Assembly: GCF_000223395.1 (NCBI RefSeq)
Contig: NC_015931.1
Span: forward strand, 540,001 to 572,000
Length of the DNA: 32,000 nucleotides
Direction: 5' to 3'
Source: Pyrolobus fumarii 1A
Lineage (GTDB): Archaea; Thermoproteota; Thermoprotei_A; Sulfolobales; Pyrodictiaceae
Below, piece by piece: positions 3,860-32,000 of this stretch (its first letter is position 1; every line of letters begins with the position of its first letter). The notes beneath the pieces were generated by a model. The model did no database searches. It worked only from the letters and a program-made list of their open reading frames with translations, and had not been told where the DNA came from. Position numbers and translations under genes: made by a program.

Positions 3860-4453
3860 GTGTGGGTGACGACGCTGAACTCTGTAAGGTTGCTCGAACA
3901 GCCATTGCCGAGGCCTCGGCGAGACCCCACGGGCTATGCTAGTGCTCGAGTCCTAGAGGCCCTACTCGAGGCTCTCCTGGCTCTAAGGTTCCTCGAGGAG
4001 GGTTACACCAGGAACGCTGCAGGCAAGGCGTTCCAGGCGTGGCGGGCTCTCACAGGAGCACTGCTAGCCCTCGAGAGGGACAGGATACTGGAGAGTCTGA
4101 GGACCGAGGAGGAGAGAAGATGGCTAGAGGAGAAGGGTATACCACGAGTGCCCTCGTCAAGGCTCAAGCCGTTGGCAAGGCTAGTCGAAGAAGCAGGGTA
4201 CAAAGACTACACGCATTACACGAGCACAGCGCTCGACCTCCACGACTATCAGTACCACGGGCCGGACCCCTCCGGCGACATGAGCAAATACCCTGATCCC
4301 GAAGAAGCGGCAAGAGACGTTACATCGATCCTGGCCAAACTGACTAGGATTGTAGAAGAGCATGCCAAGCCAAAGTTAGAGCAAGCGGGAAAATGGACAC
4401 GTGAACATAGAGAAGCGTTGGAGATCCTAAAGCAGAAGCTGAGACGAGCCTAG
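3860..4453 (+). CDS. PaREP1-family (HEPN-like) protein
   Basis: The segments LEEGYTRNAAGKAFQAWRALTGALLAL ... TALDLHDYQYHG ... ILAKLTRIVEEH match the PaREP1 helix pattern. GTG start. Confidence 0.65.
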   Translation: MWVTTLNSVRLLEQPLPRPRRDPTGYASARVLEALLEALLALRFLEEGYTRNAAGKAFQAWRALTGALLALERDRILESLRTEEERRWLEEKGIPRVPSSRLKPLARLVEEAGYKDYTHYTSTALDLHDYQYHGPDPSGDMSKYPDPEEAARDVTSILAKLTRIVEEHAKPKLEQAGKWTREHREALEILKQKLRRA

Positions 4454-4595
4454 TCCCTTCAAGCAGACCACCAGAGTATACTTCTCGGAAAACCTTTGCA
4501 AGAAACGTACTACAATTCTCCAATCCGGTAGAGTTCTATGGTGTTCGAAGTAACCATTGCTAGCATGTGCTTCCCCCTCGTATTCTCTAGTGCTC

Positions 4596-5015
4596 TTACA
4601 CGTTCCTAGCAGGATTCTCAACATCGTCCCTCCTTACCGGTTCGGCTATACGAATTACTCCGTACTTCGCTCTTTCCTTAGGACAGAGTTCCGAGAAAAT
4701 CACTATCCTGACTCGCCAACCTCCAGCTATAGCCAGCCACTCATGTGGAGCTATGCTAACCCTGGTTAAGTTTAATATTAGAACCTTTTGGGAGGACATC
4801 AGTGATAAAGAGCTTCTGCATTCCTCCCCTCTGAGCACATTCAAATACATTTCTCTAGCCTCGGGTAAAATCTCATTGAGGATATCTATGGCCCGCCTAT
4901 AGACGCTGTTTTCGGGACACGAGCACATCCATACTATCATTTGTTTTTGTTGTAGTAGCTTGCGAATGGCTAGATATCTCTCCAGGAGCATGTCGGGTGA
5001 CGTTACTCTCGCCAT
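4596..5015 (-). CDS. Hypothetical protein in an AT-rich patch; possibly the distal part of a frameshifted gene
   Basis: The frame is open from 5084. The first ATG is at 5015 (MARVTSPDMLLERYLAIRKLLQQ...). It overlaps the 4897-5175 frame. No family was recognised. Confidence 0.3.
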   Translation of the reverse strand: MARVTSPDMLLERYLAIRKLLQQKQMIVWMCSCPENSVYRRAIDILNEILPEAREMYLNVLRGEECRSSLSLMSSQKVLILNLTRVSIAPHEWLAIAGGWRVRIVIFSELCPKERAKYGVIRIAEPVRRDDVENPARNV

Positions 5016-5175
5016 GCGGGGTGCCCAGAACACTGAGGTACGCGGATGTGTGGCGGCTGAGATACTGATGCAGGCCAAACACGGCTACGACAATAACTAC
5101 TATGACGAGAAGAGTGTACACGATACCGGGCTTAGTTGTATGCAGATGAGACATGCTACCAGCCGTCTGCTTCAA
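4897..5175 (-). CDS. Small hypothetical protein with one predicted TM helix; possibly the N-terminal part of a frameshifted gene
   Basis: Hydrophobic stretch IVYTLLVIVVIVVAVFGL. Starts are TTG 5175 or ATG 5154, with A/T boxes 25-60 nt upstream on the minus strand (5196-5220). Confidence 0.3.
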   Translation of the reverse strand: MKQTAGSMSHLHTTKPGIVYTLLVIVVIVVAVFGLHQYLSRHTSAYLSVLGTPHGESNVTRHAPGEISSHSQATTTKTNDSMDVLVSRKQRL

Positions 5176-5195
5176 GCTATGTACGTTAGCATTGT

Positions 5196-5220
5196 GATAT
5201 TTTAAGGCTATTTTATAAGG
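5196..5220. promoter_or_regulatory. Two adjacent TATA-like boxes (TTAAAATAT and TTTTATAA)
   Basis: GATATTTTAAGGCTATTTTATAAGG. The core ATTTTATAAGG recurs at 6633-6643. On the minus strand it sits 25-60 nt upstream of the 5175/5154 starts. Confidence 0.35.
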
Positions 5221-5484
5221 TCTTGGCAGCCCTATCTACCCGCAAAATCTCTCTGCACCCCGCGTATCTCCTCTCCGACGACCTGTAGCTTATCCTAACG
5301 GAACCATGAGGCCTCGTGCCATGTAGACCCTCTCCGCCGACCTCCGAAGAACCCGGAAAATCCCCGAAAGACGTGAGGAGCGGCTTCCTTCGCTACATCC
5401 TCCGAGCACAAGGCTCTTTGGGTAAAATACGTCTATGTCGGTCTTGCTTGGTGTTAGGGTCTCGAATCACCTGGTTAGTAGGGT

Positions 5485-6048
5485 ATGCTCTTAGCCGAGT
5501 TGCGTGCTTGGCAATTGTGGTGTAGTATAGTGGTCACTATTACCATTCCGCGGAGAGTTGTAGAGGCCATACGTAAACGTGGGCATGTGGATGTTGAGGC
5601 TTTCGTACTGGAGGCTATAGAGCAGACGCTAGGCCTCGACCCCCAGGAGGAGCTTGAAACACGCTTCTCTATCGCCGAGCATATGCTCAGGAGGGCTCGC
5701 GAAGAGCTTGAAGGGGGCGATCCTGTCCAGGCCTCGGAGAAGCTGTACAAGGCTGTCGAAGAGTGTATCAAGATATTAGCGTGCCTGAATGGTCTGGAGG
5801 AGTGCGATATAGCCAGGAGAGAGGGAGCGTGGTGGTCGAAGCTGCTTGGCAGAGCTGCACGTAGACTATCGCTGGCCCTAGGCGAGCCTCTAATAGTGGA
5901 GGCTTGGAGCCATGCCTATGATCTCCATGTTCACGGTTTCCACGAGCACGCTTACACGGTAGAGGAGGTTAGGGAGTCCCTACCGCTAGTCGAGAAGCTA
6001 GTGGAATACACGAGAAGGGCGTTAGAGGATACCAAGACGCGAAGATGA
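5485..6048 (+). CDS. RHH-like N-terminus fused to a PaREP1 (HEPN-like) domain; likely true start GTG 5530
   Basis: VVTITIPRRVVEAIRKRGHVDVEAFVLEAIEQTLGLDP, followed by GDPVQASEKLYKAVEECIKILA ... HAYDLHVHGFHEH. It is closely paralogous to 20240-20746. Confidence 0.7.
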   Translation: MLLAELRAWQLWCSIVVTITIPRRVVEAIRKRGHVDVEAFVLEAIEQTLGLDPQEELETRFSIAEHMLRRAREELEGGDPVQASEKLYKAVEECIKILACLNGLEECDIARREGAWWSKLLGRAARRLSLALGEPLIVEAWSHAYDLHVHGFHEHAYTVEEVRESLPLVEKLVEYTRRALEDTKTRR

Positions 6049-6633
6049 CACACGCCTACACCGCGACGCACTCGTGTGGAGGACCTGCGGTCAACCAGAT
6101 ACTCCACTACAATATCTTAACCTTGGCCATCCTAAAAAGGCTCCTTAACAAACCTAGAATGGATTGTGACTCGTGTAGATGACTAGACGAGCGTTGTTTT
6201 AGAACTTAATGTGATCTTTGCATCCTCACAGTATACGGATGGATCTAGGCATAGAAACTCATCATGCCTAGCTTCGGGTCCCTGCCCAGCTAACTTCCTA
6301 CCATGAGTCTCCACGTGTAGGGATTCTAACACCTGTGTTGAGAGTTTCCGCAGAAAAGAGTGTTTAAAAGCAGTGATAGCGCCTAGGACAAGGGTATGTT
6401 ACGTGACTGTCGTGATACCAACGGAGGAGAACAAGAGGCTAAATCCAAGCCCTGCCCATGATGCATCTTAGCCCTGGTGAAGTGCACAGAGTTCATCTCG
6501 TAGATTAGGGAGGGCGACAGATGTTATCTTGGTTTAACGCCGTTCTTCCCCACGGAAAACTGCTACATCATTATTGCTAACAGTCTGAGTTAACAGATGC
6601 ACTTATCATGTTCGGACTGCATGCACATGATGA

Positions 6634-6641
6634 TTTTATAA
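6634..6641 (+). promoter_or_regulatory. TATA-box candidate upstream of the 6705/6732 PaREP1 gene
   Basis: TTTTATAA lies within ATTTTATAAGG, about 65-90 nt upstream of the candidate starts. Confidence 0.35.
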
Positions 6642-6704
6642 GGCGATCATGATATGCTTGGAGTAGACCGTGAGCAGTGACGATAGCATTATTCCTGTGG
6701 GGCG

Positions 6705-7220
6705 TTGATATACTGGTCGGTGCCTACAGGGTTGGCATCTATTACTGTTAGTATCCCACGCAGCTTGGCTGAGCGTGCACGGAAGGAGGCTGAGAAGCTT
6801 GGCCTTGGGCTCGAGGAGTACATCATCGAGCTGCTGGCAGAGGGGCTAGATCCCAAGGATCGCGCACAGGAGTACGTTGAAGCTGCCCTTGAGCTGTTGG
6901 GGCAGGCGCGTGAGGAACTGGAACGAGGCGATATCCGCCAGGCTGCAGAGAAGCTCTGGGGCGCTACTGCGCTCGCAATAAAGGCTTATGCCTGGCTGAG
7001 AGACGGGAGAAGACTCGCGAGCCACGGCGAGCTGTGGGAGTACTCGAAAAGGCTCATTGATGAGCTTGGAGAGTGGGTGTTTGACGCGTGGATGGCTGCT
7101 AATGGGATGCATACGTGTTTCTATGAGGGGTGGTGTACGCGGGGCCATGTAGAGAGGGCTCTAAAGAGGATAGAGAGGCTGGTCCGGGAAGTCGCCACGC
7201 GGGTTAAGGCAGGGAGATAA
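6705..7220 (+). CDS. RHH-like N-terminus fused to a PaREP1 (HEPN-like) domain; start TTG 6705, GTG 6720 or TTG 6732
   Basis: ITVSIPRSLAERARKEAEKLGLGLEEYIIELLAEGLDP, followed by GDIRQAAEKLWGATALAIKAYAWLRDGRRLASHGELWEY ... GMHTCFYEG. Confidence 0.7.
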   Translation: MIYWSVPTGLASITVSIPRSLAERARKEAEKLGLGLEEYIIELLAEGLDPKDRAQEYVEAALELLGQAREELERGDIRQAAEKLWGATALAIKAYAWLRDGRRLASHGELWEYSKRLIDELGEWVFDAWMAANGMHTCFYEGWCTRGHVERALKRIERLVREVATRVKAGR

Positions 7221-12991: not shown

Positions 12992-14692
12992 CTACCTCCT
13001 CTTGATAGCAACGGCCACCAGGGCTGCGACTACTGCAGCCACAACAGCAGCGAGTATAGCCGTGTTCATTATTCCGCCTTCCTCCGCAGCGCTTGTGATG
13101 CCCTCCGTCTCGCCCACAGTGCCCGTGGTACTCTCCATATGCTTCTCCTCGTGAGTCTCTGTGTGTATCTCTTTCTCTACCTCGGTGTGTATCTCTGTGT
13201 GGCTCGCGTGTGTCGTAGTGTGCATCTCGGTTTCGGTTTCACTCTCGATCTCGACCTCTGTCTCGCTCTCTGTCACTGTCGTCTTCTTGGTGCTCGTAGT
13301 CGATGTTGTCTCGGTTGTGGTCGTGGTAGTGGTGGTTGTTGTAGTGCTTACAGTTGTGGTCGTGGTTGTCGTTGTTGTGGTCTCAGTGGTTGTCGTCTCG
13401 GTCTCCTCTGACGGCGCTACAACCGCGAATATCGTGAAGTGCGTCGTGTTGACTTCTACGACGCCATTCTGGGCGTCGATCACGCGGGTTGGCAGCGGGT
13501 GCCAGCCGGTACCATCATTGTACATCACGATGGCGTTCGGTGGTATCGGGTGACCTAGGCGTAGGCGTAGCGTTACCGTCTCGCGGAACTGGTGCCTTGG
13601 CTCCAGCTTGACCGCAGCCATTACACGGTAGCCCTTCGGGGGCGTTGTGACGTTGACACCCTCAGCGGTGATGTAGTGTGGCGAGACTGCACCCGCGTTT
13701 ATCGTGAGGTTGAGTTCCTGGCCGGCTGCTAGCATTAGGGATAGCCTCACCCTAGCCCTAATCCTGCCATGCTCGTCCTCGAGTGCAACGAGGCTAACAT
13801 AGACTGGCGGCATCCTGGATATGTTGACGTCGGGCGCCTCTACAACAAGGCTCGTAGTGTTCGGTAAGAGTGCTAGCATGAGGCGCGTCCTTACCCTCAG
13901 CAGCTCGAGCGCCCTAACCCTGACCCTCACGCACTCGCCCTCGACGCTTACAGTGGCGTTAGGCGCGTCGAGCACGCGTACCCTGGTCTCGCCCCACACT
14001 GGCGCCGCACCAACCACAACATCGTCCACTATCTTCACGGCGACGCCGTGCACAGCGAGCACATGCACTGGTGGCGCGTAGGCTAGCGTTACTCTATACT
14101 CGGCTGTAGTCTCGTCAGGGCTGAGCGTAGCTACGATCAGGGTGGCGTTGGGCATGTAGAGTGCAGCTTGGCCCCAGTAGCCGGTTCTAAGCATCAACCC
14201 GGTTGCGTTGCCGGCAGCGTGTCCGCCTCTGGGCCCGCCGGCCCTAGTGGCGTTCCCCGCGAGGATGCTACAGTTCACGTGGTGCTTGACGCACACCTTG
14301 GCGAGGAGCTTCACCGGCGGTATAGTCACATTGCTCTTCAGAACCTCTACGTTGTCGCTAGCGTCTACAACCTTCACCCATGGCGGCAGAACCTCGAATA
14401 CCTTCACGACCTCGTCCTCGGCTAGACTGGCGTTTAGGACCAGTCTCACCGTGAGCACCGCGCCGGTCTTGATGCTATCCGGCTCTAGGAACTGGGTGAC
14501 CAAGATGTTACGAGGATGGCCCCTGGCCACATTGACCGGCGCCGTAACGTTCCTACCCTTACCAGCCGCTCCCTGACCCGGGCTAGGCTGCTGGCCATGA
14601 GGCCCAGCAGCATACACAACAGCTGCCGCGGCAGCCACCGTGATAGCAACTAACAGTAGTAGTGCCGCTGCGCGTAAACCACTCGACACCAT
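12992..14692 (-). CDS. Surface-anchored glycoprotein with signal peptide, beta-rich ectodomain, Thr-rich stalk, His/Glu-rich repeats and a C-terminal TM anchor
   Basis: The N-terminus AALLLLVAITVAAAAAVVYA is signal-like. There are at least 12 N-x-S/T sequons. The domain ends in VEVNTTHFTIFAVVAPS. The C-terminus is AILAAVVAAVVAALVAVAIKRR. Confidence 0.75.
   Translation of the reverse strand: MVSSGLRAAALLLLVAITVAAAAAVVYAAGPHGQQPSPGQGAAGKGRNVTAPVNVARGHPRNILVTQFLEPDSIKTGAVLTVRLVLNASLAEDEVVKVFEVLPPWVKVVDASDNVEVLKSNVTIPPVKLLAKVCVKHHVNCSILAGNATRAGGPRGGHAAGNATGLMLRTGYWGQAALYMPNATLIVATLSPDETTAEYRVTLAYAPPVHVLAVHGVAVKIVDDVVVGAAPVWGETRVRVLDAPNATVSVEGECVRVRVRALELLRVRTRLMLALLPNTTSLVVEAPDVNISRMPPVYVSLVALEDEHGRIRARVRLSLMLAAGQELNLTINAGAVSPHYITAEGVNVTTPPKGYRVMAAVKLEPRHQFRETVTLRLRLGHPIPPNAIVMYNDGTGWHPLPTRVIDAQNGVVEVNTTHFTIFAVVAPSEETETTTTETTTTTTTTTTVSTTTTTTTTTTTETTSTTSTKKTTVTESETEVEIESETETEMHTTTHASHTEIHTEVEKEIHTETHEEKHMESTTGTVGETEGITSAAEEGGIMNTAILAAVVAAVVAALVAVAIKRR
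13127..13267 (-). repeat. Coding His/Glu/Thr-rich imperfect repeats (HTEIHTEVEKEIHTETHEEKH)
   Basis: The plus-strand motif GTGTGTATCTCT recurs at about 13161-13200, covering aa 476-522 of the surface protein. Confidence 0.7.
13268..13411 (-). repeat. Coding low-complexity Thr-rich stalk (SEETETTTTETTTTTTTTTTVSTTTTTTTTTTTETTSTTSTKKTTVTE)
   Basis: Runs of ACN codons (seen as GTNGTNGT on the plus strand), covering aa 428-475 of the surface protein. Confidence 0.85.
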
Positions 14693-22020: not shown

Positions 22021-22434
22021 TCACCTCAGCGCGGGGTAGAGGCTTGCAAGCTCCTCGTCGAACGTCGCTATATAGCTAAGGTTGTACACCTTAGCGGCGA
22101 CTATGCTAGTGGCGTCGGTGAAGCTTATGCGCGGCGTGTGCCTCGCGAAGAGGCTCCAAGCCTCGTTGAACATATCGATGGTAACGGGGATAATGCGGAA
22201 AGCCTTCTTCTCGAAGAAGAGGGCGCCAGCCTTCAACGCAGCCTCTCTCCCACCCCTCATAGCCATATACGTGAGCACCTCGTCGATTATATAGTCGGTC
22301 ACGTGGGGGATCCCGTAGGCGCCACGTAGTATATCCGAGAGTAGGCGCACCGCACGCCGGTGTAGAGAGTCACTCTTGTTCAAAGCCGCTATGATTACAC
22401 TGCTGTCCACTAGCACGCCTCCCACCATAGACAA
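22021..22434 (-). CDS. vapC: PIN-domain ribonuclease toxin VapC
   Basis: Motifs VLVDSSVIIAAL, TDYIIDEV, SFTDATSIVAAK and IATFD provide the conserved PIN acidic residues. The likely start is ATG 22428. Confidence 0.85.
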   Translation of the reverse strand: MSMVGGVLVDSSVIIAALNKSDSLHRRAVRLLSDILRGAYGIPHVTDYIIDEVLTYMAMRGGREAALKAGALFFEKKAFRIIPVTIDMFNEAWSLFARHTPRISFTDATSIVAAKVYNLSYIATFDEELASLYPALR

Positions 22435-22690
22435 CCTTATCCACCTCCGCGTGAGACTCGCTCACCCTAAGGTCAACGCTCAGCTCCTCCAACAGCCGCT
22501 CCGGGTTCTCCATAGGCCTCCATGCGCCAAGCTCCTCGAGAAACTCGCTCCTCCTGCGCCACGCAAGTCTCAACGCAGCTTCGATGATATCCTGAAACCT
22601 CGGCCTCGAGCCCAGCTCGACAGCTACAGCGGCCTGCAGCCTCTCCAGCATCTCCCGAGCCTCACGACTAATCTTAACCGTTGTAACCAC
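22370..22690 (-). CDS. vapB: Ribbon-helix-helix (CopG-like) antitoxin VapB
   Basis: VVTTVKISREAREMLERLQAAVAVELGSRPRFQDIIEAALRLAW. The start is GTG 22690 or 22699, with an A/T box about 45 nt upstream. The 3' end overlaps vapC by about 59-65 nt. Confidence 0.6.
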   Translation of the reverse strand: MVTTVKISREAREMLERLQAAVAVELGSRPRFQDIIEAALRLAWRRRSEFLEELGAWRPMENPERLLEELSVDLRVSESHAEVDKVVYGGRRASGQQCNHSGFEQE

Positions 22691-22806
22691 GGGGGCCACG
22701 AAACCCGCCCGTATACCCGGTATACCCGGAGACACCCGTATAACAATGCCACCCGGGTAGGTGATGTAATCCACCAGACGCGAAGGCAGGGATACGTAAT
22801 GGCTCG

Positions 22807-22829
22807 AATAGCTTATCCGAGCCCAGGCT
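22807..22829 (+). repeat. Right copy of the 23-nt direct repeat (AATAGCTTATCCGAGCCCAGGCT)
   Basis: It has one mismatch to 21973-21995 and lies upstream of the vapBC promoter region. Confidence 0.85.
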
Positions 22830-22914
22830 GTCACATCTTACTAGGCGAGATTGTATACTAGTATCATGCCCGTCTTAGTAGGGTGTCCCTATCACCCTGA
22901 GAGAGTTAGACAAG

Positions 22915-23169
22915 GTGACCAGGAACTACCAGGTTACTATACCGGCGGTTGTGAGGTCGAAAGCTGGCATCCGTGAGGGTGACCTCGTAGAGGTGTGGTT
23001 CGATGAGGAGGAAGGCGTGATCAAGATTGCTCCTGTGAGACGCAAGAGGTTGACAATCATGCTTGGGAGGAGGGTAACTGTTGAGGAGATCGAGGAGGGT
23101 TATACCACCTGCATTGGTTGTCCACGAGTATGTCCTGGTTATGGTCAGGAAGGCTATACCTTACCTTAG
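22915..23169 (+). CDS. AbrB/SpoVT-domain (VapB/MazE-like) protein with no adjacent toxin gene
   Basis: NYQVTIPAVVRSKAGIREGDLVEVWFDEEEGVIKIAP is a swapped-hairpin AbrB fold signature. It has an unusual Cys-containing tail, CIGCPRVCPG. Confidence 0.7.
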   Translation: MTRNYQVTIPAVVRSKAGIREGDLVEVWFDEEEGVIKIAPVRRKRLTIMLGRRVTVEEIEEGYTTCIGCPRVCPGYGQEGYTLP

Positions 23170-28143: not shown

Positions 28144-28373
28144 CCAACCAAGAGCTAGACTAGCATACCCGGGCTGAACACTCTTTGAGGTTCACTACTG
28201 CCGGGAGCCCCTCAGCAAAACCGGGATCACAAGGGGCACAGCAACGCAACCTATAGCCGTAGCCGGGGGGATCCCCGCCTCCCAGACAACATACCTCAAC
28301 ACGCGCTCCTCGCCATACCCCGTGGACGCCTTGCATCCACGCCCATTATCATCGCCGCTGGCCGCTCTTGACT

Positions 28374-28384
28374 ATATTATTATC
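28374..28384 (+). promoter_or_regulatory. TATA-box candidate for the second vapBC operon
   Basis: TATATTATTAT lies about 40 nt upstream of ATG 28421. Confidence 0.45.
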
Positions 28385-28420
28385 CTGCCCACCTCTGCTC
28401 TCCCACATGGGCGTGTGGGT

Positions 28421-28654
28421 ATGAGACACGGGGATGTAATCGTGGTTGATGAGCGGGGGCGTGTCACGCTCCCCGCTTGGCTGCGCAAGAGGCTCGGGTT
28501 GAGGCCCGGCTCCAAGCTCGAGGTTAGGATCGAAGAGGGACGTGTGGTGCTAGTCCCTGTGCGGAGGATTAGGGCACGAGACTTGCTGGGCATAGCTGGA
28601 CCTGAAGACGTGGATATAGAGGAGGTTGAGAGTGCTCTCGGTGATACTAGTTGA
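28421..28654 (+). CDS. vapB: AbrB/SpoVT-type antitoxin VapB
   Basis: VIVVDERGRVTLPAWLRKRLGLRPGSKLEVRIEEGRVVLVP. The stop TGA (28652-28654) overlaps the vapC start. Confidence 0.75.
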   Translation: MRHGDVIVVDERGRVTLPAWLRKRLGLRPGSKLEVRIEEGRVVLVPVRRIRARDLLGIAGPEDVDIEEVESALGDTS

Positions 28655-29067
28655 GTGTGCCGAGACGCTTCATAGACTCTAACGTGTTCGTCTATGTGCT
28701 TTCGGGTGACTCTAGGTTCGCCCAAAGGGCGCTAGCGATTCTCGAGGACGCGGAGGACGGCGTCTACGAGGCCTACACGTCCACTCTGGTCGTCTCGCAG
28801 GTGCTCGCTCACCTCGAGAGGAGGGGGAGAAGAGAAGCCATGGAGAAGTTCCTTGAGTATCTCGGCGACTCTCCGATAACCGTTGTAGAGACGAGGCTCG
28901 ACGACTTTACCTATGCGTTGCGACTAGCACGCGAGAACAACCTGTCCTTCCAGAAGCTCTGGGACGACCTGGTGATAGCCTCGCAGATGGTGAGACTCGG
29001 CATAAGAGAGATCTACTCGAACGATACCGACTTCGACCGCATCCCCGGCATCACGAGACTATTCTAG
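28651..29067 (+). CDS. vapC: PIN-domain ribonuclease toxin VapC
   Basis: Motifs FIDSNVFVYVL, STLVVSQV, WDDLVIA and SNDTDFDRIPG. The start is TTG 28651 or GTG 28654, overlapping the vapB stop. Confidence 0.85.
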   Translation: MSVPRRFIDSNVFVYVLSGDSRFAQRALAILEDAEDGVYEAYTSTLVVSQVLAHLERRGRREAMEKFLEYLGDSPITVVETRLDDFTYALRLARENNLSFQKLWDDLVIASQMVRLGIREIYSNDTDFDRIPGITRLF

Positions 29068-29590: not shown

Positions 29591-30643
29591 ATGCCTAGTT
29601 GGGACATGCATGTCAAAATCGCTAAAATGCTTGGCTTGGATCCCTTAACGGCTAGAGAGGTCAATGTAGATGTTGATGCTGGCCCGTTGCACGATATAGG
29701 TAGGCGGCTTCCTAGAGTGAGATTAGGCGGTTGGAGTATACACCGGAGGCTTGTTGAGGAGAAGCAGTTGTCTCACCTTAAGAGTATAGCGTCAAAGATC
29801 GAGCGTAATCCGGCGTATCGTGATGCATTTGTGCTCCACCACGTCATAGACGTTCTAGCAGATCTTGAAGTATCAAGCAACCTGCTGTCACAGCAGGGTG
29901 TTAGTGTAGACCTCGGGATTATCCGCGAGCGTGTCCGCGCAGAACTCCTGGCTCTGGGCAAGCTTGTTGAGAGTGGCCACGTAGAGAGGATTATTGACCT
30001 TGTCTTTGCCCACCTGGATGCTGTTAGGAGCGCGATGAAACCTTGGGTTTCGAATGTTGTGAAGGAGCGTATGGACTATGCACAGCTTGACGATAAAGTC
30101 TACATCGAGAGAGTTCTACGGAACTTATCAATGACTTACAACAAATGGATTAATAACCTCGCTAAAGGCTTTGCTCGAGCTATCGCCGAGGTGCTTGGTG
30201 CTGAGATACGCTGGAAGAATTTAACGGAGACTGAAGATGCAAGTGAGTTCGAAAGGGGTAAACCGGACTGCAAGTATCTCATCTCCAACCTGTTCTTCAG
30301 ACTGCATAGGAGGGCCCTCCTAACCTCACTATACTTTGACATGCTCTACATCTGTTTCAAGTTCAACACTGAAATCTTCAACGAGACCGTACTGAGGATC
30401 ACTAAGAGAAGAGCTGCCGAGATGGGACGTTACGCAATCAGAGCATGCGTAGAAAGCACAAACCCTCGCTGTGCTCTTAGCACTGCACTTGACGTCTTCA
30501 ACCACTATACTCTAGACGCCTGCAAGAGGTACATAGAGCAAGCACAGACACTGGCAACCCGATACTCGGAAATGCTATATGCAATGCTAACCCATGCAAC
30601 CCGCCTGCTAAGGGAACACTATGGCTGCGAAGTCTTCTACTAG
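29591..30643 (+). CDS. Orphan 350-aa protein with an HD-phosphohydrolase-like N-terminal motif set
   Basis: H7 (DMHVKIAKMLG), H34-D35 (PLHDIGRR) and VLHHVIDVLAD resemble the H...HD...D arrangement. The remaining about 250 aa are helical with 7 Cys. The DNA is AT-richer than the surroundings. Confidence 0.55.
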   Translation: MPSWDMHVKIAKMLGLDPLTAREVNVDVDAGPLHDIGRRLPRVRLGGWSIHRRLVEEKQLSHLKSIASKIERNPAYRDAFVLHHVIDVLADLEVSSNLLSQQGVSVDLGIIRERVRAELLALGKLVESGHVERIIDLVFAHLDAVRSAMKPWVSNVVKERMDYAQLDDKVYIERVLRNLSMTYNKWINNLAKGFARAIAEVLGAEIRWKNLTETEDASEFERGKPDCKYLISNLFFRLHRRALLTSLYFDMLYICFKFNTEIFNETVLRITKRRAAEMGRYAIRACVESTNPRCALSTALDVFNHYTLDACKRYIEQAQTLATRYSEMLYAMLTHATRLLREHYGCEVFY

Positions 30644-30778: not shown

Positions 30779-31321
30779 CTAAGGTGATGTTAACCACCTT
30801 AAACAGTCTAGATACTTGTCAAAATCGCGTTCCCCTATGAGAATCTTGACGTCGATACGAGGGGCTAGCTTGGCTAGCATTCGCTTCTCGTAATATGAGT
30901 TGAGGAGTCTCTGTATAGCTTGTACCGGGTCTCTTCTGCAGATGCGCCTGTCACCTCCAAGGCCTATGCAGAGCCACGCTTCGTGCATGGGTTCGACTGT
31001 CACAACACGGATGTAATCAAGCTCATCTCTTCTAAAGTGCCTCCTTACAAAGTAGTCGGGAGCGTCTGGCTTTCCCTCTGAATCGATAACCACCAGAATT
31101 CTCCATGGACTACCGGCAACAATGGCTCTAGCGTGGTTCGCCATGGCGGGATTGCACTTCTTTGCAGGTAGGCGTCGAATACGTGGCTTGTGAGTCCTGA
31201 TGTTCTCACATAACGATTCGATCTTGAGCTTTCTGCTCTCGCATAGTTCTATCAGCTTGTTTATAAGCGTGCGATGAAATGTTACACCATAAGTGTCCTC
31301 GACTAGTATTAGGCGCTTCAA
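30779..31321 (-). CDS. Small Toprim-like (DUF4276/RloB/OLD-type) putative nuclease
   Basis: The strand-acidic pattern is RLILVEDTYG (E8-D9) ... RILVVIDSEG (D80-S-E82) ... VVTVEPMHEAWL. TTG start lies 4 nt after the stop of the upstream ATPase gene. Confidence 0.55.
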   Translation of the reverse strand: MKRLILVEDTYGVTFHRTLINKLIELCESRKLKIESLCENIRTHKPRIRRLPAKKCNPAMANHARAIVAGSPWRILVVIDSEGKPDAPDYFVRRHFRRDELDYIRVVTVEPMHEAWLCIGLGGDRRICRRDPVQAIQRLLNSYYEKRMLAKLAPRIDVKILIGERDFDKYLDCLRWLTSP

Positions 31322-31325
31322 GGTC

Positions 31326-32000
31326 TTAACCCCCGGTCTCGTGGTATATCACATAGTCGCTAAGGAGTATACCTTCACGTGCGAGAGTCTCACGCAGCTT
31401 CTGCGGGTCTGGTAGCCTCGAGGCTGTCGTGCCCTGCGCCTCCCTCTTCACTACAATGACATCCTCCGGGTCGACGAGGTCTACTGGTATCGGAGAGTGC
31501 GTCGCGACTATAACCGGTATTTGTAGCGAGTCAAGCTCGTCAACGAGGTACTCTAGCATCTTTGCATGGAGGCTATTTTCTATCTCGTCAATGAGTAGCA
31601 GCGTCGGGTTAAGCTCTATAGCGGCAAGTATCGCAAGCAGTTTTACGAGACCATCCGGCATGTTGGGGGGCGGTAGCCTAAGCCCATTCTCGGTGGCTAC
31701 CAGCGCGACTCTCCCAAACCCCGTTTCCACTTTCACGCTACAACCCGGGAATAGTTCACGTAGCGCATCCGCTATTCTCTCAGGGAGTGCACCCCTTTCC
31801 GCAATCAAAGTGAGGAGTACCTCCGCGAGGTTACGCGCCCTCACATCGAGCCTCTTTGCACCAGTGAAGGGTCTCGGCTCGCCTATTGCTGCGATATCAG
31901 GGTGTTTGAGCATAACTATGCCACTCAATATCCTAACGATGTGCGAGAATAGCATCATGAGAGATGGGGCCGTATAAGAGTAGCCTATGGGACGTCTGCA
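31326..32000 (-). CDS. ABC/AAA_21-type ATPase, C-terminal about 225 aa (N-terminus with Walker A lies beyond the window)
   Basis: Signature-like DGLVKLLAILAAI, Walker B/D-loop LLLIDEIENSLH, and H-loop VIVATHSP. The frame stays open past the annotated Met to position 32000. Confidence 0.7.
   Translation of the reverse strand, partial: CRRPIGYSYTAPSLMMLFSHIVRILSGIVMLKHPDIAAIGEPRPFTGAKRLDVRARNLAEVLLTLIAERGALPERIADALRELFPGCSVKVETGFGRVALVATENGLRLPPPNMPDGLVKLLAILAAIELNPTLLLIDEIENSLHAKMLEYLVDELDSLQIPVIVATHSPIPVDLVDPEDVIVVKREAQGTTASRLPDPQKLRETLAREGILLSDYVIYHETGG

Follow-up and report, generated by a model that had tools for sequence, protein, structure and literature searches.

The locus

We analysed a window of 32,000 nucleotides (nt) from the genome of Pyrolobus fumarii 1A (RefSeq assembly GCF_000223395.1, contig NC_015931.1, positions 540,001 to 572,000 of the forward strand). 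At its far end, two adjacent minus-strand genes, Pyrfu_0624 and Pyrfu_0623, encode an ATPase of the ATP-binding cassette (ABC) type and a Toprim-like protein of 180 amino acids (aa). An earlier reading made from the letters of this DNA alone (the sequence-only reading) had proposed the pair as a candidate defence module in the style of OLD, PARIS or AbiL and had left it without a family. Our analysis supports it as such a candidate, its defence role being deduced from its relatives and surroundings. The locus is very likely a two-gene unit that pairs an ABC ATPase with a Toprim-superfamily protein, for which we present the following features:

31326..32000, minus strand: C-terminal 224 codons and stop codon of the 444-aa ABC-type (OLD-ABC, AAA_21/AAA_15) ATPase Pyrfu_0624, from the open reading frame (ORF) and profile matches
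31322..31334, minus strand: junction between the ATPase gene and the small gene, read from the sequence
30779..31321, minus strand: 180-aa Toprim-like protein Pyrfu_0623 of the DUF4276/Mad4/HEC-01B superfamily, from the ORF, profiles and a structure model

The frame of the ATPase is open from position 32000 to a TAA stop codon at 31328-31326, and the part within the window carries the signature-like motif PDGLVK, the Walker B/D-loop segment LLLIDEIENSLH and the H-loop motif ATHSP. The N-terminal 220 codons, including the Walker A motif GANAAGKS, lie past the window edge, where the sequence-only reading had placed the Walker A half; we recovered them from an identical contig (L001, 2890-4224), which gives a complete protein of 444 aa. 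A spacer of 4 nt (GACC, 31325-31322) separates the ATPase stop codon from the TTG start codon (31321-31319) of the small gene, which ends at 30779 and whose product carries the motifs LILVEDTYG, ILVVIDSEG and VEPMHEAWL. A G-rich, Shine-Dalgarno-like GGGGGT (31334-31329) is found within the final codons of the ATPase gene, 7 nt before the TTG. This layout points to translational coupling of the second gene to the first, with a putative role for the G-rich sequence in ribosome binding. The ORFs, the motifs and the 4-nt gap that had been claimed are all present at these coordinates, and the motifs are not chance occurrences: the acidic residues of the small ORF are invariant in 20 homologs, and the ATPase motifs are kept in 20 orthologs.

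The small ORF is identical to AEM38492.1 (Pyrfu_0623), which is labelled "hypothetical protein" in GenBank, and the ATPase is identical to AEM38493.1 (Pyrfu_0624; 444 aa), labelled "SMC domain protein". We found no paper mentioning either gene.

The ATPase

The full-length ATPase matches the Pfam models AAA_21 (86.9 bits, cutoff 27; 3.5e-24) and AAA_15 (58.6 bits, cutoff 32.1; 1.1e-15), and further matches to SMC_N (5e-11), AAA_23 and DUF2813 are restricted to the Walker A region at residues 7-50. HEC-01A is the best of the PADLOC models (5e-30), followed by PDC-M25A, AriA (1e-24), mad3 (3e-21) and AbiLi (9e-20), with Old, GajA, PtuA and NsnB scoring lower. The top match in NCBIfam, from a scan that covered the C-terminal 224 aa of the protein, is MADS3, which scores 47 bits where the cutoff is 420. 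The ABC-type ATPase that had been read from the motifs is thereby borne out by AAA_21, AAA_15 and the PADLOC models of HEC-01A, AriA, mad3 and AbiLi.

Twenty orthologs of the ATPase keep the Walker A motif G[PA]NxxGK[TS]N, the signature-like [PA]DGxxK, the Walker B and D-loop segment LLIDExENSxH, and the H-loop motif THSP. Judged by these motifs, the ATPase has a complete ABC catalytic set, and it is probably enzymatically active because the set is conserved across the 20 orthologs. The C-terminal half, whose 224 residues the window encodes, was modelled with AlphaFold at a pLDDT of 88.8. Its nearest structural matches in Foldseek are the PtuA chains of the retron Ec83, retron Eco7 and Septu complexes (E ~2e-6), and the next matches are the heads of SMC proteins and cohesin. 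PtuA is also the nearest solved protein by sequence (phmmer 1.9e-5), at ~20% identity.

Outside the ABC core, three further motifs are conserved in the clade, namely PYxPxxPxYW, HPD...EP and RAxNL (residues 61-71, 252-262 and 274-278 of the protein on L001). In related defence ATPases, insert regions confer trigger specificity. The three motifs lie near or within those insert regions and may mark a surface that binds a partner or a trigger.

The small protein

A word-index search of 5.8 billion proteins returned only 20 homologs of Pyrfu_0623, which are 39-91% identical to it. Invariant in all 20 are V7-E8-D9, G12, F15-H16, P52, C56, V78, D80 and E82, as well as H113-E114, W116-L117-C118, G120, C128, P132, Y144 and K146. 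A hidden Markov model (HMM) search of 1.84 billion representatives extended the family to 201 relatives at E <= 1e-3, nearly all of them 155-185 aa long and matched end to end.

The family membership of the small protein becomes apparent through these relatives. Among the 20 close orthologs, 12 match the PADLOC model mad4 (best 4.1e-7), five match HEC-01B (3.7e-5), and three match DUF4276 at E >= 0.13. We scanned 76 of the more distant relatives, where the Pfam matches are to DUF4276 (28/76, best 2.2e-6), RloB (12/76, 1.2e-8) and Toprim (1/76), and the PADLOC matches to mad4 (30/76), HEC-01B (~19/76), ATPase-Toprim_I-B (6/76) and AbiLii (6/76). Pyrfu_0623 itself gives no match at E <= 1 to either PF14103 (DUF4276) or the HEC-01B models. 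Alignment of the close clade with six relatives flagged as PF14103 using hhalign gave a probability of 99.5% over 150 columns; the flags were precomputed, and the flag was marked "faint" for the one relative whose locus was looked up. On this profile evidence we consider the relation to DUF4276 real, with Pyrfu_0623 lying beyond the detection of the Pfam model.

DUF4276 and RloB are Toprim-superfamily nuclease domains with a Glu after strand 1 and a DxD motif after strand 3, and Mad4 is a DUF4276 homolog (PMC12065111). The AlphaFold (AF2) model of Pyrfu_0623 (pLDDT 91.3, pTM 0.88) has strands at residues 2-7, 47-50, 73-80 and 104-109 with helices between them, forming a fourfold beta-alpha repeat, which is followed by a helical C-terminal part that carries the conserved Y144-x-K146. 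In this model, strand 1 ends with E8-D9 and strand 3 with D80-S-E82, and H113-E114 come after strand 4.

These positions are also conserved in the wider family. In a table of 75 distant relatives, D80, E114 and Y144 are kept in all 75, K146 in 74, D9 in 73 and E8 in 71, while position 82 is D in 54, E in 16 and H in five. Over 95 sequences, the near-invariant positions are E8, D9, D80, [DE]82, E114 and K146. In the Thermoprotei clade, which is a DxE variant, position 82 is always E, and there is no variation at H16, H113, C56, C118 or C128; of these five, C56 (57/75) and C118 (61/75) are common in the wider family as well, and H16, H113 and C128 are clade-specific. We regard E8-D9, D80-S-E82 and H113-E114 as candidate metal-binding residues, and by sequence the family appears to carry the acidic set that is canonical for Toprim, in the places used by Toprim enzymes for Mg2+ binding. 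The sequence-only reading had taken the small protein for a Toprim/DUF4276/RloB-type domain. Its acidic triad is conserved, and the Toprim assignment is well supported by sequence profiles and by the topology of the model, but the search of solved structures gave nothing significant, and the assignment is not proven by fold comparison.

The two genes as a unit and their distribution

Scanning one genome per GTDB species, we found the cassette in 24 loci, all of them in Thermoprotei (Desulfurococcales, Pyrodictiaceae, Acidilobaceae, Thermoproteus, Thermofilales and Vulcanisaeta). In 23 of the 23 loci that have upstream DNA, an ATPase homolog is encoded directly upstream of the small gene on the same strand. 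The intergenic gap ranges from -20 to +38 nt across 21 loci, and most orthologous junctions have GGTG- or GGAGG-like motifs 5-12 nt upstream of the start of the small gene. The pairwise identities of the two proteins are correlated over 16 loci (r = 0.73, a value reached by none of 5000 Mantel permutations). Distant relatives flagged as DUF4276 also follow an AAA_21 ATPase gene, with a 4-nt overlap. A conserved third gene was found neither among 127 neighbouring ORFs of 20 loci nor in three loci with precomputed Pfam annotation. The two genes are co-transcribed in layout, always adjacent and co-evolving.

Several orthologous copies are broken. The small gene is frameshifted or split at two loci (L025, 6001-6505; L026 from Vulcanisaeta distributa JCM 11216, 6001-6446), and the ATPase gene at three others (L008, L022 and L014), which suggests recurrent decay or errors in draft assemblies. 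The overall distribution is that of a horizontally mobile accessory cassette whose association with defence islands is partial and not strong; we read the pair as accessory genes because the neighbourhoods vary and some copies are frameshifted.

Genetic contexts

The context claimed for the Pyrolobus pair, a typical defence island in AT-rich DNA next to a VapBC module, holds in part. The small gene, the 350-aa ORF next to it and the DNA from there to vapC have a GC content of 46-49%, compared with 53-54% in the ATPase gene and 57-60% in the flanks. The AT-rich island around the pair is real but modest, and a second stretch of the window (4000-7000; 49-53% against 57-63% around it) is equally low in GC and may be another acquired region. 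The VapBC pair is present at 28322-29067 (plus strand; MazE_antitoxin and PIN in Pfam), but it lies ~1.7 kb from the cassette, with the unrelated 350-aa ORF in between. Defence-island surroundings were found at some orthologous loci, whereas most neighbours elsewhere are housekeeping genes.

At locus L028, in a metagenome-assembled genome (GCA_054027675.1, contig JBPMJU010000014.1, 5923-15479), an orthologous cassette lies within a clear archaeal defence island. This island contains, in order, the genes for an Mrr_cat nuclease and for an OLD-like ATPase-Toprim protein of 610 aa (PF20469), then the cassette, and then the genes for McrB (AAA_5 and McrB_lid), McrC and a 990-aa DEAD/Helicase_C protein. 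At a second locus (L004), in a metagenome-assembled genome of an uncultured member of the Desulfurococcales, the cassette has 92% nucleotide identity to that of Pyrolobus and the left flank is syntenic. Here the small gene is followed, 0.9 kb downstream, by a csa1-cas1-cas2-cas4 adaptation module (4013-6634), which takes the place of the Pyrolobus segment with the 350-aa ORF, the VapBC pair and a VIT1-like gene (L001, 4812-8282). The ATPase gene of this locus is broken up into three reading frames, through either decay or errors of assembly. Scattered neighbours at other loci include PIN, PaREP1, ATPase_2, HerA, CARF/Csm6 and EVE genes.

In Pyrolobus, the cassette is flanked by the 350-aa orphan, VapBC and the VIT1-like gene on one side and by a gene for a tRNA-binding-domain protein on the other. 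The 350-aa ORF (window 29591-30643, plus strand) is convergent with the cassette and lies in the lowest-GC stretch, at ~47%. Scans of Pfam, PADLOC and NCBIfam gave no significant match for it, and it is missing from all of the 24+ related loci, the 92%-identical ortholog among them. Its N-terminus shows an H...HD-like pattern (MHVKIAKMLG...LHDIGR), read by eye only. We rejected this ORF as a component of the system on account of its convergent orientation and its absence at every other locus; it is an orphan gene, perhaps acquired separately.

A second VapBC-type pair (a MazE/AbrB-type antitoxin and a PIN toxin) lies at ~22021-23169 of the window (L001, 12381-13529), less than 7 kb from the first, and is known from the precomputed Pfam annotation of L001 only. 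We looked for a clustered regularly interspaced short palindromic repeats (CRISPR) array in the window and found none. Two short imperfect tandem repeats, at 13156-13201 (12-nt unit, 3.8 copies) and 13323-13396 (33-nt unit, 2.2 copies), sit inside a 566-aa ORF (12992-14692, minus strand), where they presumably encode a repetitive, low-complexity protein segment.

Comparison with known systems

The closest catalogued relative of the ATPase belongs to HEC-01 (Hma-embedded candidate 01), which consists of the ABC ATPase HEC-01A and the TOPRIM protein HEC-01B (Payne et al., bioRxiv 10.1101/2024.01.29.577857). The order is the same, with the ATPase followed by a small Toprim-like protein; HEC-01A is the best PADLOC match of Pyrfu_0624, and HEC-01B models match a quarter of the close orthologs of Pyrfu_0623 and a similar share of its distant relatives. 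Unlike HEC-01, the Pyrolobus pair lies outside any helicase-methylase-ATPase (Hma) system and is archaeal and restricted to Thermoprotei, and its clade has DxE in place of DxD together with the invariant His and Cys residues, several of which are clade-specific.

A comparable relation exists to the methylation-associated defence system (MADS) of Pseudomonas aeruginosa, since the ATPase matches mad3 and the NCBIfam model MADS3, and relatives of the small protein match mad4. The Pyrolobus pair, in contrast, stands alone, and its MADS3 score, obtained with the C-terminal 224 aa, is far under the cutoff. The MAD6-8 genes are mandatory in MADS, and we found neither these nor a methyltransferase gene nor any other MADS gene in the 14.8-kb contig around the pair. 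We therefore rejected membership in MADS on the low MADS3 score and the missing MAD6-8 genes.

PARIS shares with the Pyrolobus pair an ABC ATPase followed by a separate effector of the Toprim superfamily, and the ATPase matches the AriA model, though this model has 304 positions and was matched over positions 210-300 only, a part shared with AAA_21. The small protein differs from AriB (DUF4435 = PF14491, ~35 kDa) in being 180 rather than ~300 aa long, and no DUF4435 match is listed for Pyrfu_0623, for any of the 20 orthologs or for any of the 76 scanned distant relatives. On these two grounds we rejected membership in PARIS, which is nevertheless, by analogy, the best mechanistic counterpart of the pair.

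AbiL (AbiLi with the RloB-like AbiLii) and RloA/RloB have the same two-gene layout of an ATPase and a small Toprim-like protein, and the ATPase matches AbiLi. Neither Pyrfu_0623 nor its close orthologs match RloB (PF13707) or AbiLii, which led us to reject membership in these systems; the matches of some distant relatives to the two models indicate kinship at the superfamily level only.

The OLD family (class 1 P2 Old/TsOLD, class 2 GajA, and retron-associated forms) likewise combines an ABC ATPase of the AAA_15/AAA_21 type with a Toprim-superfamily domain that has an acidic metal-binding cluster. In OLD proteins, both domains reside in one polypeptide of ~570-620 aa, which matches PF20469. 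The Pyrolobus pair consists of two ORFs and has no PF20469 match, and we rejected its identity as an OLD protein for these reasons. An hhalign comparison of the wider small-protein family with one archaeal OLD-like protein gave no match, which is a weak negative given this single, low-diversity target.

Septu and the retron type I-A PtuA-PtuB pair resemble the Pyrolobus pair in that PtuA is nearest to the C-terminal half of the ATPase and that their ATPase oligomer controls a small nuclease, as is proposed here for the pair. They differ in that PtuB is an HNH nuclease, not a Toprim protein, and the identity to PtuA is low. Overall, we liken the pair to PARIS and AbiL in its probable working and consider it related to HEC-01 and Mad3/Mad4.

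Favoured interpretation and proposed mechanism

With fair confidence, we interpret the pair as a two-gene conflict module of an OLD-type ABC ATPase and a small DUF4276-type Toprim nuclease. It probably represents a divergent, Thermoprotei-restricted clade of the family of HEC-01 and Mad3/Mad4 (MADS), directed against viruses or plasmids. That it serves in defence or conflict seems somewhat probable by guilt by association, on the basis of the OLD, Mrr and McrBC genes at L028, the cas genes at L004 and VapBC in Pyrolobus.

By analogy with PARIS, Septu/retron PtuAB and Gabija (for the last, see PMC12065111), an oligomer of the ATPase would act as a sensor and keep the small nuclease inactive. 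An invader-derived trigger would alter ATP binding or hydrolysis, upon which the small nuclease would be released or activated. The nuclease might then cleave nucleic acid (DNA, or tRNA or other RNA), so that either the invader would cease to replicate or the cell to grow, and the infection would be aborted. In PARIS, AriA sequesters AriB until a trigger frees it, and AriB cuts tRNA (PMC11464382); release of this specific kind is put forward here only tentatively. In MADS, deletion of mad3 or mad4 lowers defence, and mad5 can be deleted only when mad2 or mad3 is also deleted (bioRxiv 10.1101/2023.03.30.534895). This deletion pattern fits the idea that Mad3 and Mad4 together make up an effector arm, one that is potentially toxic.

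Several observations weigh against the interpretation as a conflict module. Scans of Pyrfu_0623 itself against Pfam, NCBIfam and PADLOC produced no significant match, the sole PADLOC model that the protein touches being mad4 at E = 0.006. A Foldseek search of its model against the PDB returned nothing significant: the best match was a designed Rossmann protein (E = 0.04), and the Toprim proteins of retron Eco2 (TMq 0.47), RNase M5 and PARIS (8ux9_A, E = 0.64) appeared as weak matches. The corresponding search against the viral structures of BFVD gave nothing with E below 0.03, and a profile search against PDB sequences gave no meaningful match. In E. coli, the representative HEC-01 system gave protection from none of the tested phages (bioRxiv 10.1101/2024.01.29.577857). 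The neighbours at other loci are mostly housekeeping genes (Mrp/Nuo subunits, ferredoxins and glycosyltransferases), which makes for weak enrichment in defence islands, and no relatives of the cassette were found in the viral contigs and plasmids that we searched.

Alternative explanations

One alternative, which we consider unlikely, is a selfish toxin-antitoxin or addiction module without a dedicated antiviral role, in which the Toprim nuclease would be the toxin and the ATPase the antitoxin, maintained through post-segregational killing. PARIS has been described as type II toxin-antitoxin-like, AriB being the toxic partner that AriA neutralises (PMC13064643), and the Pfam label of AAA_21 is "putative AbiEii toxin, type IV TA system". 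The cassette also lies near VapBC pairs, has variable contexts and is patchily distributed. Such behaviour is, however, compatible with defence by abortive infection, and the cassette was not found on the plasmids and viral contigs that were searched.

It is also improbable that the Pyrolobus pair is a dependent sub-module, either incomplete or acting through unlinked genes, as Mad3/Mad4 form part of the eight-gene MADS and HEC-01 is embedded in Hma. The closest models are indeed mad3/mad4 and HEC-01A/B, HEC-01 alone gave no defence, MAD3 and MAD4 are accessory parts of a larger system, and a few neighbours at other loci match mad8, HerA and BrxP/SspD-like models. Against this, no conserved third gene stands beside the cassette in 20+ loci, and the pair is intact and co-evolving across several orders of Thermoprotei, which argues for a self-sufficient unit.

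We give still less weight to a reading of the small protein as an adaptor or regulator that lacks catalytic activity and has kept no more than a Toprim-like scaffold; under this reading, DxE and the His and Cys residues would mark another activity such as the sensing of a metal or ligand. Position 82, which is D in most relatives, is always E in the clade, H16, H113, C56, C118 and C128 are invariant there, and the fold search gave no significant match to a nuclease. Glu nevertheless retains the carboxylate and is also found at position 82 in some of the distant relatives, and the invariant E8, D9, D80 and E114 form the pattern expected from purifying selection on a metal site.

We rejected a housekeeping pair for DNA repair or chromosome maintenance (a RecF-, SMC- or Rad50-like ATPase with an accessory nuclease), which is highly improbable: the GenBank label, the N-terminal SMC_N match and the SMC heads among the structural matches speak for it, but the SMC_N match covers the Walker A region alone, the protein has 444 aa and no coiled coil, in profile and fold searches it comes closest to defence ATPases (HEC-01A, AriA and PtuA), and, rather than occupying the same locus in all relatives as an SMC, RecF or RecN gene might, the cassette occurs in only 24 species-level genomes, with differing neighbourhoods and several frameshifted copies.

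Significance

Returning to the conflict module that we favour, the analysis turns two poorly annotated P. fumarii genes into a defined, testable cassette with named candidate catalytic residues. This cassette belongs to a Thermoprotei-wide clade that is mostly missed by current Pfam and PADLOC models, and a profile for the clade would improve the annotation of defence systems in Crenarchaeota. Its thermostable proteins could suit structural work on the control of a nuclease by an ATPase. To our knowledge, no activity has been demonstrated for the DUF4276/HEC-01 branch, and we know of hardly anything on such systems in hyperthermophilic archaea.

A more far-reaching possibility, which we regard as doubtful, is that the Thermoprotei clade is an autonomous, functional immune system working at ~100 °C or above, in which the ATPase would sense a cue from an archaeal virus and set free a 21-kDa Toprim nuclease whose active site has been remodelled. 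The remodelling would consist of DxE for DxD together with the invariant His16, His113, Cys56, Cys118 and Cys128, which possibly form an extra metal site or a disulfide. If this were true, Crenarchaeota would have in this pair their first characterised ABC-ATPase/Toprim defence, and the HEC-01/DUF4276 class, unsuccessful in E. coli, would gain its first functional proof. The kind of system is already catalogued, as HEC-01 and Mad3/Mad4, and it introduces no new principle and will not surprise a specialist. The value of the pair lies in annotation and in its use as a thermostable model.

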